Shown piece by piece: positions 29,951-37,584 of a DNA stretch of 64,000 nucleotides. The notes beneath the pieces were generated by a model that had not been told where the DNA came from, did not search any database, and saw nothing but the letters and a program-made list of their open reading frames with translations. The position numbers and the translations under genes are program-made. The DNA lies in sequence record NC_135728.1; one strand, given 5' to 3'. Position 1 is the first letter of the stretch, and the number at the start of each line of letters is the position of its first letter. The stretch comes from a phage.

Positions 29951-30027
29951 TGGTCTCCACGGAGTGATTCGAACACTCGACCTCCTGATCCCAAATCAGG
30001 CGCTCTACCAAGCTGAGCTACGCGGAG
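29951..30027 (-). tRNA. tRNA-Pro (anticodon UGG)
   Basis: Manual fold: acceptor CTCCGCG/CGTGGAG, D-arm GCTCAGCTTGGTAGAGC, anticodon loop TTTGGGA, T-loop TTCGAAT, encoded CCA. Confidence 0.8.
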
Positions 30028-30038
30028 TATTTATAATT

Positions 30039-30113
30039 TGGTGGCCCTGGGTGGAATTGAACCACCATCTGGCGATTATGAGTCGCTTGCTTGAACCTTC
30101 CAGCTACAGGGCC
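30039..30113 (-). tRNA. tRNA-Met (anticodon CAU; could alternatively be a lysidine-modified Ile2-type)
   Basis: Manual fold: acceptor GGCCCTG/CAGGGCC, anticodon loop CTCATAA, T-arm GGTGGTTCAATTCCACC, encoded CCA. Confidence 0.75.
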
Positions 30114-30114
30114 A

Positions 30115-30190
30115 TGGTGCTGATGGCAGGACTTGAACCTGCAACCTATTGATTACAAATCAATTGCACTGCCAATTGTGCTACATCAGC
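30115..30190 (-). tRNA. tRNA-Thr (anticodon UGU)
   Basis: Manual fold: acceptor GCTGATG/CATCAGC, anticodon stem ATTGA/TCAAT with loop TTTGTAA, T-arm GCAGGTTCAAGTCCTGC, encoded CCA. Confidence 0.85.
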
Positions 30191-30196
30191 AAAAAG

Positions 30197-30294
30197 GTGC
30201 TAGGCGGTGGAATCGAACCACCTATGTATTCAACGACTACCTCGTCTATTTTCAGGATTAAAAATCCTCGCCCTTGCCAAAGGGCTTACCTAGC
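30197..30294 (-). tRNA. atypical tRNA-like gene (about 98 nt; canonical acceptor and T-arm, aberrant anticodon/variable region, CCA not fully encoded)
   Basis: Acceptor GCTAGGT/GCCTAGC and T-arm GGTGG-TTCGATT-CCACC are canonical; only a 4-bp AGGA/TCCT stem with loop TTTTTAA and a ~30-nt region before the T-arm; positions 8-9 are AA. Confidence 0.4.
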
Positions 30295-30392
30295 TCAGTA
30301 TGTTGACCATGTTGCTAGTCGGCGATGACGACTGTAACATTTGATAATCCGGTTCTGCTTCCGGCTTTCGCTTAATTACAAGGTCAACAATG

Positions 30393-30483
30393 TGGCGGAG
30401 AGTAATGGAATCGAACCATCATCGAGTCATCCTCAATGGGACGGTTTTCAAGACCGCTTGAGCACCATTGCTCCCTACCCTCC
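30393..30483 (-). tRNA. tRNA-Ser (anticodon UGA), class II with long variable arm
   Basis: Manual fold: acceptor GGAGGGT/ACTCTCC, anticodon stem GCGGT/ACCGT with loop CTTGAAA, long variable arm, T-loop TTCGATT, encoded CCA. Confidence 0.75.
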
Positions 30484-30598
30484 TTTATAAATTATACTGA
30501 TAATGACACTGATTTTCGAGCAGTTAGTGACTAGTATAAACGACGATAAATATCAATGCCATTATCTGTATTATTTACGCATCTAAAAAATATAAATT

Positions 30599-30685
30599 TG
30601 GTGGGGAGTGGTGGAGTCGAACCACCCGAGTCGCAATGACAATAGATTTACAGTCTACACCGCTACCTCTACGGGATAACTCCCC
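30599..30685 (-). tRNA. tRNA-Tyr (anticodon GUA), class II
   Basis: Manual fold: acceptor GGGGAGT/ACTCCCC, anticodon stem GTAGA/TCTAT with loop CTGTAAA, T-arm GGTGGTTCGACTCCACC, encoded CCA. Confidence 0.8.
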
Positions 30686-30689
30686 AATT

Positions 30690-30764
30690 TGGCACCCCGT
30701 ACTGGACTCGAACCAGTGTCAACGGCTTAGAAGGCCGCTGCTTTATCCACTAAGCTAACAGGGC
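30690..30764 (-). tRNA. tRNA-Arg (anticodon UCU)
   Basis: Manual fold: D-arm GCTTAGTGGATAAAGC, anticodon stem GCGGC/GCCGT with loop CTTCTAA, T-arm ACTGGTTCGAGTCCAGT, encoded CCA. Confidence 0.8.
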
Positions 30765-32642: not shown

Positions 32643-33145
32643 AGCTGCCTCCTCTTCAAGTTATAGAAAAACTCACTGTATCGCTTTGTAACGAGCTTTT
32701 CTATCAAACTGGTGCGATTGCCTTACTTGGTATAGTTTATATGGCTGTGGAGCGATTTAGGGGCCTCATTGTCCGTTTCCACACATAAACTTTATCCAAA
32801 CTCGCGCGGGAATCTCTCAACCGACTCCTTACGGCGCTGGCAAGCTTTCGTCGGTGGTCCACATTAGTGCTCGGCCTTTGGCCTGCGCTATCGCTTCGCT
32901 CCCACACATGTTAACAGACCTGCATGTATGCACTTCTGTTATTGTGTGCACTATGGAGGCCCGGCATCTCGCCCCTCGTAGGCGAGTGCCAATGAAGGGC
33001 CGACACTACCTATAGAAAGTAATAAATTTAAAACATGGTACTTAGGATCTAGTATATTCTACATAAGTTAAGTATATGTACTTAGTACCATAAGTACTAG
33101 ATCTTTTATTTTTTATTATTTAGTTATTTTAGTTATATTCTTTAT

Positions 33146-33228
33146 GTGTCCGTATCACGGACAGTTAGTGTCCGTATCACGGACAGATGTGTCCGCGTGA
33201 CGGACAGTAGTGTCCGTATCACGGACAG
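33146..33228. repeat. array of four ~19-bp palindromic repeats (GTGTCCGTATCACGGACAG) at 21-22 bp spacing
   Basis: Copies at 33146-33164, 33168-33186, 33189-33207 (centre variant GCGTG) and 33210-33228; half-sites TGTCCG/CGGACA are perfect inverted repeats. Confidence 0.85.
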
Positions 33229-33302
33229 TTAATAGTTTCTGTTCCATGGTGAACATAAAACATACAAATCCTTATAGTACAGATATTTAAGTTTTTACTG
33301 GT

Positions 33303-33653
33303 CTAACCAGTTGTTGACATTCGAATAACTTCTTCTGGTGGCAAAACTTTGGAAAATGTGCATCTTTTACCTCTCCCTTGTGTGGATGTTTCAACAACTC
33401 CTGCACATTCTAAAGTTTTAACGCACGCTGCTGCTTTTGTTTTCTTTATCCCAACATCTGCTGCAATTTTCCTTGTGCTTGGTGTGAAGTGTGAATTTCC
33501 TCCAAGCTTATACCAGTTGTGCAGGTAGCAGTATACAATCTTGTCATACAAGTCAAGAACAACAACCTCCCCAGTTGTGTCATTCAAAACTTTTGACATA
33601 GATAGTATTTCAAGGGGGACTTTAAGATATAGCAGCTTATCCCCATCTTTCAT
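33303..33653 (-). CDS. putative DNA-binding protein (116 aa)
   Basis: ORF track; helix-turn-helix-like segment (TPSTRKIAADVGIKKTKAAACVKTLECAGVV); 75 bp from the palindromic repeat array. Confidence 0.4.
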   Translation of the reverse strand: MKDGDKLLYLKVPLEILSMSKVLNDTTGEVVVLDLYDKIVYCYLHNWYKLGGNSHFTPSTRKIAADVGIKKTKAAACVKTLECAGVVETSTQGRGKRCTFSKVLPPEEVIRMSTTG

Positions 33654-33700
33654 ATCTCCTGATTCTCCTTGTGTGGCAATTTTCTTTAAAATAGCAGGGA

Positions 33701-34255
33701 TTACTCCCTGCTGTCAATATCAAAACTCATTGCAATACGGTATGCCTCTTCTAATGGTAAGAGTCTCCCCCACACATCCCAACCGACATCAAACTGTCTA
33801 CCAAACAACTGTTGTGTGGTTCCGTGAGCATGACCGAACAGTTGGACTGATCCGTGATGCTTTCTGTTCCACGTTGCAAACTGGTAATGGCTCATACAGA
33901 TCAAATTCTTGTTGTGGCGAAGCTCGTAATAATCTACAACCTCATGACCGAACTCTTTCATAATTCTGACAGTCGTCCTTGTGTCATGGTTGCCACGAAC
34001 AAGAATAATATGTCCGTTCAACATATTTAGAATATCTGGAAGTAAGTTGTTGATATTCTTATCATTAGTGCACGCAATATCTCCCAGGTGGAACACAGTG
34101 TCTGCAGGTGACACAACTGAGTTCCACTCGGTGATGATTCCCGCATTCATACTGTCAAGATTGTGATCATATTGAGATCTGTGTTTTTGACATGAATCAA
34201 ACTCCATGACCCGCTGGTGGAGAAAGTGCGTATCGCTTGTTACAAAGTATTTCAT
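33701..34255 (-). CDS. calcineurin-like metallophosphoesterase (putative RNA 2',3'-phosphatase of an RNA-repair set)
   Basis: Motifs DTHF, GDIA, GNHD, GHAH; start set at internal Met with GAGGAA RBS just after the kinase stop. Confidence 0.65.
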   Translation of the reverse strand: MKYFVTSDTHFLHQRVMEFDSCQKHRSQYDHNLDSMNAGIITEWNSVVSPADTVFHLGDIACTNDKNINNLLPDILNMLNGHIILVRGNHDTRTTVRIMKEFGHEVVDYYELRHNKNLICMSHYQFATWNRKHHGSVQLFGHAHGTTQQLFGRQFDVGWDVWGRLLPLEEAYRIAMSFDIDSRE

Positions 34256-34262
34256 ACATTCC

Positions 34263-34673
34263 TCATTTAAGTTTAATGCAGTTTTTAAGCTGGCGTTCCA
34301 TACGATCCACAACCTTGTCTGGAACATCATGAATGCTTTTATTACCGTGGCGGTTTTCAACCACGATTACGGTATAACTATACCCATGACTGATTGCCAT
34401 GTCAACATATTCCTGCACATGTTTTTCTTTTGTAAACGTATTACTTACCACGATACGGTCGTATCCCATACACATCATATCTTCTACGTTATCTTTGCAC
34501 CATTTTGCTGCGAGTGTTACTTTACTTGCATCCCAGTTGTAATTGCCGTCATCGTCATACCAAAACATGTCATTCTCAAAATGTGGATACAGACCTTCTA
34601 AAGATAGCGCATTTGCCAGTGTTGATTTGCCAGACCCTGGCAGACCACGCACGATATATAGCATTTTAGACAT
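34263..34673 (-). CDS. P-loop polynucleotide kinase-like protein
   Basis: Walker A GLPGSGKST near the N-terminus; start at Met of MSKMLYIVRG with GGAGG RBS 7 nt upstream; ORF-track N-terminal extension judged spurious. Confidence 0.6.
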   Translation of the reverse strand: MSKMLYIVRGLPGSGKSTLANALSLEGLYPHFENDMFWYDDDGNYNWDASKVTLAAKWCKDNVEDMMCMGYDRIVVSNTFTKEKHVQEYVDMAISHGYSYTVIVVENRHGNKSIHDVPDKVVDRMERQLKNCIKLK

Positions 34674-34773
34674 AGCAATCCTCCGTTTTAATTTTAATGA
34701 TAGTATACCTAACTGTTTTGTTAATTTCAAGTGTTGACACCAGGTTGTTTGTGTGGCAGGATAGACTGACAAA

Positions 34774-35709
34774 ATGACAAATGAGGAACGTATGATGAAG
34801 TATTTTAATGCAGATGACCTAGTAGACAAAGGTCTTGTAACCAGTCGGTATTATCCAGATCTTGGATTAAAGATCTATAAATATGCCAGAAAAGTATTCT
34901 ACAACAATCTGTGGCATTTGTCTCCGCGTTTACTGGAGTGCCGAGGTATTGTTGTTGGCAATGAGGGGAATGTTGTGGCATGGCCTTTCACAAAAGTATT
35001 CAACTTAGGAGAAAACTCCACCAACCTACCGGACAGTAAACTTGTTACTGCGGTAGAGAAAAAGAACGGATTCCTCGGTGTGGTATCATCTCATAAAGGT
35101 GAACTATTGTTCTCAACAACCGGGTCTCTTGATTCCCCATATTGTAACCTCGCAAAAGAAACCATCAGGGAGCAATGTGGTAATTTAGATCTTATCAAGA
35201 AGGTTATGGGCAATGAAAACATGACATTCATGTTTGAAATTTGCCACCCTTCAGATCCGCATATTGTTCAGGAAGATCATGGCGCATATTTGATAGGTTG
35301 CAGATATAATGATTCTGGAATAATGCTACCAGAAGCAGCTTTAGATGGGATTGCCAAATACCTTGGTGCAAAACGTCCTCACACTGTGCGTGAAATTCCG
35401 TTCAGCTATGCAAAAGAATTAGCTGCAGAAACAAGAGGTGAAGGGTATATGATTCGTAAGCCTTACTACCCTTATGATCTGCAGCTGAAGATCAAGTCTC
35501 CATACTATCTGGCACGGAAGGCAGTAATGAGGGGTAAAGCTTGGAAGATTTGGGATGATGATATCTTTAAACGTGTTGACGAAGAGTTTTACGGTATGGT
35601 AAAATTTATTCGTAGCAACTATACAGAAGATGTGTGGAATTGCTTATTAGAGCAGGAGCGTCGTGAGATACTGGACTACTATTTCCACAACGAGGACTAT
35701 ATGCAATGA
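34774..35709 (+). CDS. RNA ligase, T4 Rnl1-like
   Basis: Stretches resembling T4 RNA ligase 1 as recalled: LECRGI, KVFNLGEN, nucleotidyl-transferase motif I KKNGFL, LFSTTGS. Confidence 0.65.
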   Translation: MTNEERMMKYFNADDLVDKGLVTSRYYPDLGLKIYKYARKVFYNNLWHLSPRLLECRGIVVGNEGNVVAWPFTKVFNLGENSTNLPDSKLVTAVEKKNGFLGVVSSHKGELLFSTTGSLDSPYCNLAKETIREQCGNLDLIKKVMGNENMTFMFEICHPSDPHIVQEDHGAYLIGCRYNDSGIMLPEAALDGIAKYLGAKRPHTVREIPFSYAKELAAETRGEGYMIRKPYYPYDLQLKIKSPYYLARKAVMRGKAWKIWDDDIFKRVDEEFYGMVKFIRSNYTEDVWNCLLEQERREILDYYFHNEDYMQ

Positions 35710-36056
35710 AGAAGTGGATTGTGTGGCTTGATGATTTTAGAGATCCGTCAGATTATGGACTCCCAGACGCTCTGTGGCTAAAGAATTCTTCTGAGTTTAT
35801 GGATTTTCTTAATGATAAGAGAAAGCTCTACAGACGCGTATCTGAGTGGTATTTTGACAATGATCTAGGTGAAGTGCTTGAAGGGTACGACTGCTTCTCT
35901 GCGCTAGAGGAGAAATTTGTATTCGGAAAGCCACCACTTATTGACAACGTGATTATTTTCGTGCATACTTCTAATCCATCGGCAGCTCGTAAATTTATGC
36001 TTGCTGCTGACTCATTCAAGAAGTTTGGAATAGAGATCAAACAAAACATCTACTAA
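35706..36056 (+). CDS. hypothetical protein (116 aa) within the ligase/Sir2 operon
   Basis: ORF track; start overlaps the ligase stop. Confidence 0.5.
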   Translation: MKKWIVWLDDFRDPSDYGLPDALWLKNSSEFMDFLNDKRKLYRRVSEWYFDNDLGEVLEGYDCFSALEEKFVFGKPPLIDNVIIFVHTSNPSAARKFMLAADSFKKFGIEIKQNIY

Positions 36057-36064
36057 GGACATTT

Positions 36065-36826
36065 ATGCGACGACTGATTATTATCTCCGGTGCTGGTTTG
36101 AGCGCTGAATCTGGTATTCCAACTTTCCGATCTGGTAGCACTGCAATGTGGGAGAATTTCAGCATCGATGAGGTGTGCAACATCCACACCTTTGCCAAGA
36201 ACTACTATAAGGTGCATGACTTTTACAATGCACGTCGTGTAGCTCTGGGCAGTGTTGATCCTAACCTTGCACATCTTCGGATCGCTGAGTGGTATTCCCG
36301 CTGGCCTGGTCGTGTGATCAACCTTACCACCAATGTAGATGATTTGCTGGAGCGTGCTGGTGTAAAACATGAAGATATTTTACATGTCCACGGGTATTTG
36401 CCTGAAATCACCTACGAAGATGCTGAAGGTAACGATGTAATTAAAAATATCGGATACACGGAGGTAGATACAGGCAAGTATACCTGGGTTAAGCCTAATG
36501 TAGTGTTCTTCGGTGAGGTTGCTCCTAAGTATACAGACATGTATGACCTGTTGACATCTCTCACAAGCAATGATATGGTGATCCTGGTAGGTTGTTCTAA
36601 CACAGTTATTAATTTTAACTGGGAATTGTTTCCTGCTACTTGTAAAGGCACAAAACTGCTGATTGTAAACAAGTATGACTCGCAGAGTGCAGATGGAAGT
36701 GGCATTTCACGTAGCGACCTTTATCAATATGAGGATCGCGGGATCCCTGTATGGTTTAACGGTGCTGTTGACGCTTTCTCTGATAAAGCATTTATTGAAA
36801 CTGTAGAAAACTTTATGGAACTTTAA
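36065..36826 (+). CDS. Sir2-family (sirtuin-like) NAD-dependent protein lacking the zinc ribbon
   Basis: Sirtuin signatures GAGLSAESGIPTFR, TNVDDLLERAG, HVHG, VVFFGE, ILVGCS; no CxxC pairs between the HG and FFGE motifs. Confidence 0.7.
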   Translation: MRRLIIISGAGLSAESGIPTFRSGSTAMWENFSIDEVCNIHTFAKNYYKVHDFYNARRVALGSVDPNLAHLRIAEWYSRWPGRVINLTTNVDDLLERAGVKHEDILHVHGYLPEITYEDAEGNDVIKNIGYTEVDTGKYTWVKPNVVFFGEVAPKYTDMYDLLTSLTSNDMVILVGCSNTVINFNWELFPATCKGTKLLIVNKYDSQSADGSGISRSDLYQYEDRGIPVWFNGAVDAFSDKAFIETVENFMEL

Positions 36827-36839
36827 AAGGAGACCTTTA

Positions 36840-37553
36840 ATGCTGAATACTAAACTGATCGACAACCTGGAAAAACTGTCTCAGCCTGAAAACTACCTTT
36901 GGTCTGCCAACTGGGTGGAAAACTGGAACCGTGTGGCAGCTAAAGTGAAAAAATCATACACACCATTCGAATTACAGCTTAGCTTCATTGAGGAAGAGTT
37001 CAATGAGGTTTTGGAAGAGCTGGAGAAAGGTGATGGTGGAGATCACCTGCTAAAAGAGGCCTGCGATCTTCACGTTGTCACAAGTTATGCCGCTTATCTT
37101 GTTAATGACAATCACGAAAAGTGGTCAAACCTGTTTGATAATCCACGAGGTCTTAAGTTCAAGATCGGTGAGTTCTATGATACACTGATCGCTGCGAAAA
37201 ACACATCCAAGCAAAGAGCGTCAGCTTACCGCTTAGCGGAGTTGTCAACAGCTTTGCTGTTCCAGCTTCGCGGAGATGTGTGTGGGATGATGCGGAAGGT
37301 TCTCAAATCTAATGACAGTAAGTTTGCACGGATCAACCATCTACGGCATTCACACGGTGCCAGTGCAGATATGCCTGCTGAACAACTCATCGAGTTGGAG
37401 ATTAAAGATCTTGAGCGTCGTTTTGGTGGTCGCTACGAAGGTTTCGTTGCTAAAGAGGAGTTCTACAACGGCAATAAAGTTATTATATTCCTTGACAGTA
37501 AAGGTAAGATTATGAAGCCTTCGAGCTTCAAGGATGTAACAGAGTATATTTAA
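36840..37553 (+). CDS. MazG-like nucleoside triphosphate pyrophosphohydrolase, putative
   Basis: EExxE-type motif FIEEEFNEVLEELEKG followed by KEACDLHVV, resembling all-alpha NTP pyrophosphatases. Confidence 0.4.
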   Translation: MLNTKLIDNLEKLSQPENYLWSANWVENWNRVAAKVKKSYTPFELQLSFIEEEFNEVLEELEKGDGGDHLLKEACDLHVVTSYAAYLVNDNHEKWSNLFDNPRGLKFKIGEFYDTLIAAKNTSKQRASAYRLAELSTALLFQLRGDVCGMMRKVLKSNDSKFARINHLRHSHGASADMPAEQLIELEIKDLERRFGGRYEGFVAKEEFYNGNKVIIFLDSKGKIMKPSSFKDVTEYI

Positions 37554-37557
37554 CAAC

Positions 37558-37584
37558 ATAGCCGGGATTACCCGGCTTTACTTA
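37558..37584 (+). terminator. rho-independent terminator
   Basis: gccgggattacccggc hairpin followed by TTTACTT. Confidence 0.6.

Follow-up and report, generated by a model that had tools for sequence, protein, structure and literature searches.

A linked kinase, metallophosphoesterase and Rnl1-family ligase as a putative RNA-repair cluster of an rV5-like coliphage

To our knowledge, experimental support for a phage repair system is essentially confined to the Pnkp/Rnl1 pair of phage T4, which counters PrrC. The kinase of T4 Pnkp is fused to its phosphatase, a haloacid dehalogenase (HAD; DxDxT) domain (PMC3592404). In bacteria such as C. thermocellum a fused kinase-phosphatase(-ligase), Pnkp, is accompanied by Hen1, and split versions (Pnkp1-Rnl-Hen1) are also known. 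In fungi and plants, ligase, kinase and cyclic phosphodiesterase (CPD) domains make up Trl1, with Tpt1 as a further enzyme. Here we analyse a 64,000-nucleotide stretch of phage DNA (NC_135728.1, referred to below as the window), in which a P-loop kinase, a binuclear metallophosphoesterase (MPE) and an RNA ligase are encoded at positions 33701-35709, followed by further genes that extend the cluster to 37553. The cluster is probably a phage RNA heal-and-seal pathway made up of separate small proteins, a reading that the gene context supports well at the level of sequence.

The arrangement differs from each of these systems. Where T4 has a kinase-HAD fusion, the window phosphatase is a binuclear MPE with a gene of its own and a complete set of metal ligands, as the original prediction made from this DNA had recognised. 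Compared with Pnkp/Hen1, there are three separate genes, and a Pfam scan of 17 neighbouring proteins found no methyltransferase. Compared with Trl1, the domains are not fused and the MPE has no counterpart.

The locus itself has been described before. A sirtuin-centred neighbourhood, type 2 of the 'NAD-utilising RNA-repair' neighbourhoods, was published by Iyer, Burroughs, Anantharaman & Aravind (2022, Viruses 14:1977, PMC9503650, section 3.7.3), with Escherichia phage V5 and Proteus phage Mydo as prototypes. The window cluster is the same locus: Sir2, the T4-like ligase, cREC, the kinase, MazG and the phosphoesterase all lie within 33701-37553, and nucleotide identity to phage V5 over the cluster region is 97.8%. 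A 2021 jumbo-phage paper by the same authors already described calcineurin-like phosphatases replacing HAD phosphatases, and the names 'polynucleotide kinase', '3'-phosphatase, 5'-polynucleotide kinase', 'phosphoesterase' and 'RNA ligase' are in use in GenBank. The cluster is, in short, a correct re-discovery of a published prediction. What is new here is the placement of the kinase in the polynucleotide kinase (PNK) structural clade, the recognition that it lacks the DxxR arginine, the finding that the MPE belongs to the aq_1665 clade, and a neighbourhood census in which MPE and kinase are the conserved core and the ligases are interchangeable. Both accounts are computational. That of Iyer et al. 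is centred on Sir2, with the MPE only occasional, whereas in our census, taken from the kinase, no partner is as constant as the MPE (34 of 44 lineages), and Sir2 (3) and cREC (9) appear as lineage-specific additions.

The kinase (34263-34673, minus strand; 136 residues, beginning MSKMLYIVRGLPGSGKST) is proposed to act on RNA 5'-OH ends. Profile searches, which the original prediction had put forward as a check, gave matches for all three of its proteins; for the kinase the match is to Pfam AAA_33 (E=1.7e-9). The P-loop GLPGSGKST, already noted in that prediction, conforms to GxxxxGK[ST] and is set in the core PNK phosphotransferase fold. The nearest folds are those of T4 Pnk, CthPnk and Pnkp1, with kinases of nucleoside monophosphates and their deoxy forms (NMP/dNMP) scoring well lower, so that by fold it is not a kinase of the dNMP/NMP type, an outcome that would have counted against the prediction. 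In the family profile the invariant Asp35 corresponds to the general base of T4 Pnk, Asp35, and the invariant Thr79 to Thr86 of T4, a co-anchor of the first phosphodiester; Asn78 occupies the position of T4 Asp85. Single-sequence searches against solved structures gave only chance-level matches for the kinase and the ligase, and family profiles were needed to reach solved structures for both. We conclude that the kinase belongs to the PNK structural clade. The best 120 homologues are all stand-alone proteins. The N-terminus of phrog_8238 (737 positions) matches the kinase and its C-terminus the ligase, suggesting a fused version in some phages. Stand-alone homologues with 35-49% identity are also common in Bacteroidota, Leptospira, Vibrio and others.

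Downstream of the kinase is the MPE (33701-34255, minus strand; 184 residues, beginning MKYFVTSDTHF), which is proposed to be the 3'-end healing enzyme. Its metal-ligand motifs are complete (SDTHF, LGDIA, RGNHD and GHAHG, the signatures by which it was first picked out), and Asp8-Thr-His10, Gly58-Asp59, Gly88-Asn89-His90-Asp91, His123 and Gly141-His142-Ala-His144 are invariant across 34 homologues. All five motifs of the binuclear, calcineurin-like metallophosphoesterases (DxH, GD, GNH[DE], H and GHxH) are thus present; the Pfam Metallophos score is 25.0 bits against a cutoff of 21.5, and kinase and MPE between them have PHROGs matches with E=1e-51 and 4e-57. The original prediction had likened this arrangement to bacterial Pnkp-type architecture. 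That comparison does not hold beyond the superfamily: tests for the lambda-phosphatase/CthPnkp-type clade found neither close similarity nor a GDxxDRG-type motif II, and the MPE falls instead in the clade of Aquifex aeolicus aq_1665 (PDB 1xm7), a metallophosphoesterase from structural genomics. The comparison with aq_1665 adds fold and clade only, and with the Pnkp likeness confined to the superfamily, homology is silent on the substrate of the MPE. A role as a protein phosphatase was judged unlikely, lambda-Pase and PP5 being distant structural matches and motif II lacking the DRG. The family is very large, with 26,075 representatives at E<=1e-3 in a profile search of 1.84 billion proteins. 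Nearly all of the best 150 matches are stand-alone proteins of 170-250 residues; among the few longer ones no second informative Pfam domain was found, one having DUF7695. In some phage contigs two metallophosphoesterase genes lie in tandem or close together, one aq_1665-like and one more divergent (L168:4397-5558, L170:5001-6910).

The ligase (34774-35709, plus strand; 311 residues) matches PF09511 (RNA_lig_T4_1) over model positions 1-227 of 227, with E=9e-15 and 55.5 bits against a cutoff of 28.3, and phrog_562 with E=1e-65. A profile built from 23 homologues finds T4 Rnl1 (2c5u) at E=9e-32, followed by Trl1-type tRNA ligases and Rnl3; the search with the ligase sequence by itself did not reach 2c5u. 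Arg57, Lys96, Glu155, Glu223, Gly224, Lys239 and Lys241 are invariant in these 23 homologues and, in the alignment of the profile with 2c5u, correspond to T4 Arg54, Lys99, Glu159, Glu227, Gly228, Lys240 and Lys242. By these sequence comparisons the protein is a member of the Rnl1 family, in a distant subfamily. The ligases of the rV5-type subclade have 305-320 residues and other homologues 351-379, the C-terminus being some 50-60 residues shorter in the former. In GenBank a legacy name, 'RNA ligase 1 and tail attachment protein', implies a function in tail-fibre attachment; we found nothing behind it beyond name transfer from T4 gp63, and set it aside.

How constant is the association of these three proteins? 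For the census we took 80 IMG/VR loci with kinase homologues (42-51% identity) and flanks of up to 10 kb per side, searched six-frame open reading frames (ORFs) with hidden Markov models (HMMs) made from the window proteins, and grouped the neighbours by de novo clustering; dereplication of the kinases at 80% identity left 44 viral lineages. The MPE family is present in 60 of the 80 loci, always on the kinase strand, and in about 20 of them the matched regions are only 24-31 nucleotides apart. An Rnl1-like ligase, again always on the same strand, is found in 28 loci, and a second type of RNA ligase (PF09414 with a PHA02142 OB domain; phrog_968), exemplified by L061:10644-11777, in 17. Both types occur together in a single locus, so that 44 of the 80 loci carry some RNA ligase. 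Counted by lineage, the MPE is present in 34 of the 44, any RNA ligase in 28, Nudix in 10, cREC in 9, MazG in 4 and Sir2 in 3. MPE and kinase thus form a conserved core with interchangeable ligases. Since two unrelated ligase families swap beside the same pair, which is hard to explain otherwise, the kinase and MPE most likely constitute an end-healing module of two proteins, specific to phages, that acts together with an RNA ligase.

Other comparisons extend this picture. The context of the MPE was sampled by three contig look-ups. One, among metagenomic phage contigs, showed an isolated MPE-Rnl1-kinase operon with opposite-strand genes on both sides; the second showed two tandem MPEs, with kinase-x-Rnl1 some 3 kb upstream of them; the third showed neither kinase nor ligase nearby. 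In Proteus phage Mydo the genes are collinear in the order MPE-x-x-ligase-cREC-kinase-x-Sir2-DNA ligase, and in Pseudomonas phiMK in the order MPE-xxx-ligase-kinase. As the genes are collinear in these two phages and inverted in the window, their linkage has survived rearrangement. Hundreds of sequenced phages carry the trio, their hosts being Escherichia, Pseudomonas, Vibrio, Klebsiella and Acinetobacter; drawn from 50,697 phage records, the numbers with kinase, ligase and MPE differ little within a host genus and are 197, 199 and 208 for Escherichia, 173, 177 and 181 for Pseudomonas, 36, 39 and 39 for Klebsiella and 24, 26 and 26 for Acinetobacter. Four further families recur beside kinase and MPE in viral contigs, of about 430 residues (21 loci), 340 residues (10), 103 residues (31) and 149 residues (20), with examples at L056:11028-12317, L055:2615-3634, L045:5354-5662 and L038:3375-3821. 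They gave no Pfam or functional PHROG match and may be unrecognised partners of the module.

Within the window, gene models were drawn from the ORF table and homologue alignments, and those for MPE, kinase and ligase agree with rv5_gp076/077/078 and bas49_0217/0216/0215. Kinase and MPE lie back to back on the minus strand, divergent from the ligase, as originally described, with the kinase upstream and 7 nucleotides between the two genes. The 100-bp intergenic region (34674-34773) that separates them from the ligase includes a minus-strand sigma70-like site, TTGAAA-17-TATACT (34730-34702), upstream of the kinase start, and a GGAGG Shine-Dalgarno sequence precedes the kinase ATG, each of these being a consensus match only. 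The original prediction took the cassette to consist of three genes. These three stand, but the cassette is larger, the ligase being co-operonic with genes for a cREC protein (35706-36056; 116 residues), a Sir2-family protein (36065-36826; 253 residues) and a MazG-like nucleotide pyrophosphohydrolase candidate (36840-37553; 237 residues), all on the plus strand. The ligase stop and cREC start overlap by 4 nucleotides (ATGA), and the gaps between cREC and Sir2 and between Sir2 and MazG are 8 and 13 nucleotides. Directly after the MazG-like stop is a GC-rich hairpin, AGCCGGG-ATTA-CCCGGCT, with a T-rich tail (37560-37577; terminator-like on both strands in a consensus scan), which is likely to mark the end of the ligase operon. 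The overlap, the short gaps and the position of the hairpin indicate two divergent predicted operons, kinase-MPE and ligase-cREC-Sir2-MazG.

The three additional proteins bring in a possible link to nicotinamide adenine dinucleotide (NAD). The cREC protein matches PF20274, cREC_REC ('cyclic-phosphate processing receiver domain'), with E=2.3e-13 and phrog_1479 with E=8e-33. The Sir2 protein matches PF02146 (E=1e-27) and phrog_2162 (E=9e-109), and scores far below every NCBIfam CobB equivalog cutoff; it retains the NAD-binding GAGxSxxSGIPxFR and catalytic HG motifs, with three scattered cysteines in the sequence and no CxxC...CxxC zinc module between the motifs. The MazG-like protein, for which Pfam and NCBIfam scans gave no match, is recognised by phrog_671 (E=1.5e-21) and by its RefSeq name, 'nucleotide pyrophosphohydrolase'. 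Iyer et al. proposed that cREC, Sir2 and MazG proteins open the cyclic phosphate to a 2'-phosphate, which is then removed in an NAD-dependent manner as by KptA/Tpt1 (PMC9503650). The window cREC and Sir2 proteins differ in fold from the 2H-CPD of Trl1 and from Tpt1/KptA, and the corresponding activities are putative. In Mydo, genes for NAD salvage (nicotinamide phosphoribosyltransferase and ribose-phosphate pyrophosphokinase; L165:1-2101) adjoin the cluster divergently, consistent with an NAD-consuming step; no NAD-salvage genes were seen among the scanned neighbours in the window.

A plausible division of labour would be as follows. The aq_1665-type MPE would open and/or remove the 3'-terminal phosphate, whether a 2',3'-cyclic or a 3'-phosphate. 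The kinase would transfer phosphate from a nucleoside triphosphate to the 5'-OH, using Lys16 and Ser17 of its P-loop with Asp35 as general base, and the ligase, adenylylated on Lys96, would join the resulting 3'-OH and 5'-phosphate ends. This T4-like scheme of MPE, kinase and ligase would be enough for the many loci that lack cREC and Sir2. In rV5-like phages the cREC, Sir2 and MazG-like proteins would probably form another route, linked to NAD, by which cyclic or 2'-phosphate ends are handled much as by Trl1-CPD and Tpt1, or else clean up by-products. A role against host defences that cleave tRNA or other RNA would be in keeping with such a pathway; the original prediction suggested defence against host anticodon nucleases. 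A more ambitious version joins all these proposals: the MPE-kinase pair would be an end-healing module specific to phages and widespread among them, its chemistry new to RNA repair, in which the aq_1665-type MPE is an RNA 2',3'-cyclic phosphodiesterase and 3'-phosphatase, the kinase recognises its acceptor without the DxxR arginine, the pair plugs into either Rnl1-type or PF09414/OB-type ligases, and the NAD route of rV5-like phages combines a zinc-less sirtuin acting as a 2'-phosphotransferase with a cREC cyclic phosphodiesterase. Taken as a whole, this combination is doubtful, at perhaps one chance in four.

Several observations weigh against the heal-and-seal reading. The RNA-repair Pnks 'all share' an Asp-x-x-Arg motif in which both residues are essential (T4 35-DDYR-38, Cth 38-DFCR-41; Das et al. 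2014, PMC3902929). The window kinase has Trp38 in place of T4 Arg38, and across 31 aligned family members the position is never arginine (Phe, Trp, His, Tyr or Met). The claim that the three proteins supply all the activities needed to heal and seal broken tRNA is partly supported, with gene context, folds and residues in its favour. The invariant Arg9 and the ENRHG loop (Arg108) may grip the acceptor strand instead. N4BP2 may also have D-x-x-aromatic in place of DxxR. Some phage kinase homologues are named 'NEDD4-binding protein 2' in GenBank, and a PNK domain is ascribed to N4BP2 (PMC6598757); we treat its PNK-like kinase domain as a lead only.

Nor does the ligase qualify as a T4 RnlA equivalog, scoring 37.6 bits against a cutoff of 242 for TIGR02308, and it lacks the full C-terminal helical domain that is linked to tRNA specificity; its C-terminal region is much shorter than that of T4 Rnl1 (311 residues, against a 375-residue chain in 2c5u), by about 60 residues. 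The description of the ligase as T4 Rnl1-like thus stands for the family and for all the catalytic residues and fails for the equivalog, and these two differences, with the distant subfamily, mean that T4 tRNA specificity cannot be transferred to it. The MPE clade contains no characterised member, and its structural neighbours include pyrophosphatases, generic phosphodiesterases and a DNA nuclease. Among 80 cellular loci with kinase homologues, the MPE is present in 4 and an RNA ligase in 3, and around the cellular homologues (contigs L083-L162) neither an MPE or ligase neighbour nor any other obvious context is conserved; more distant MPE homologues, as in Staphylococcus Kayvirus and L170, are found with no kinase or ligase nearby. 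A literature search found no biochemical or genetic work on these phage proteins.

Could the same enzymes serve the RNA metabolism of the phage itself, in tRNA maturation or quality control or in repairing collateral damage from phage nucleases, instead of counter-defence? The enzyme set mirrors the eukaryal tRNA-splicing Trl1 plus Tpt1 (PMC10946426), and ARAGORN finds a minus-strand cluster of seven tRNA genes (29951-30764) that ends 2.9 kb from the MPE stop, in agreement with the distance of about 3 kb first estimated. They comprise Pro-UGG, Met/Ile-CAU, Thr-UGU, a Lys-UUU-like gene, Ser-UGA, Tyr-GUA and Arg-UCU. The atypical Lys-UUU-like gene (30198-30294, minus strand) has the anticodon loop UUUUUAA and a 26-nucleotide insertion that folds as an extra hairpin (minimum free energy -37 kcal/mol, z -3.8; Rfam tRNA 31 bits). 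This extra arm is a hairpin of the variable region, however, and is not placed as an anticodon-loop intron would be, so that we rejected the idea of the 99-nucleotide tRNA-like gene as a spliced tRNA; in addition, Pfam scans of the neighbours identified no endonuclease partner near the cluster. We regard this alternative as improbable, though it fares best of the three considered.

A little less probable still is that the cluster acts on small molecules derived from nucleotides or from NAD/ADP-ribose, either degrading or modifying immune second messengers (cyclic nucleotides, or molecules resembling cyclic ADP-ribose) or recycling NAD. The MPE would then be a phosphodiesterase or pyrophosphatase, activities found among its structural neighbours, and the kinase would phosphorylate a small-molecule hydroxyl; the exchange of two RNA ligase families beside the pair is what this proposal would find hard to accommodate. 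Least likely is that kinase and MPE heal 5'-OH/3'-phosphate nicks or breaks in DNA for the nearby ATP-dependent DNA ligase, or that the MPE is a DNA nuclease, given that the kinase has an RNA ligase nearby in 44 of the 80 loci and a DNA ligase in 8, that the PdeM match reaches 20 bits against a cutoff of 150, and that the terminator-like hairpin and two small ORFs come before the DNA ligase.

RNA end-healing with ligation thus remains the reading we prefer, and the main value of the cluster is as a tractable experimental target, given how many tRNA-cleaving defences are now known. Its carriers include tractable BASEL coliphages and therapeutic-type Pakpunaviruses. If active, the trio would frequently determine the tRNase-based defences that a phage escapes, and a function would be assigned to a very large uncharacterised clade of metallophosphoesterases. 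The tRNA-Lys(UUU) is the target of both PrrC and PARIS. Defences that cleave tRNA are common in bacteria, among them PARIS, retron-Septu, OLD, Cas13, HepS and others, and one tRNA-Thr(UGU) that resists OLD can, for some phages, block the P2 OLD defence (2026 preprint). The tRNA cluster may accordingly be a second, replacement-type answer to tRNases beside the repair genes. A class-II-like tRNA-Lys is itself unusual, and the gene at 30198-30294 is labelled tRNA-??? by ARAGORN and tRNA-Lys in BASEL, and is unannotated in the rV5 RefSeq record.

Finally, some features of the wider genome may be recorded. By sequence match the window is the genome of an rV5-like coliphage (Vequintavirus), since more than 100 sequenced Vequintavirus phages, including naswa, magaca, EmilHeitz/Bas49, Murica and rV5, match the whole length of bases 33000-37000 with 97-98.6% identity. 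Every gene of the cluster has an annotated counterpart in GenBank or RefSeq (rv5_gp076-081, bas49_0212-0217). Pfam scans of the wider flanks, from 26 to 50 kb of the window, gave no additional RNA-repair genes. Downstream of the MPE, after a gap of 47 nucleotides, is a gene for a 116-residue DUF6945/HTH_36 protein (33303-33653, minus strand), variously annotated as 'replication initiation protein', 'DNA-binding protein' and 'transcriptional regulator', which may be co-transcribed with kinase and MPE. Between 18 and 23 unannotated 'Campylobacter phage' records in GenBank (MG0656xx) are 95.7-98% identical, in nucleotide or protein sequence, to rV5-like coliphages here, and their host label looks doubtful.

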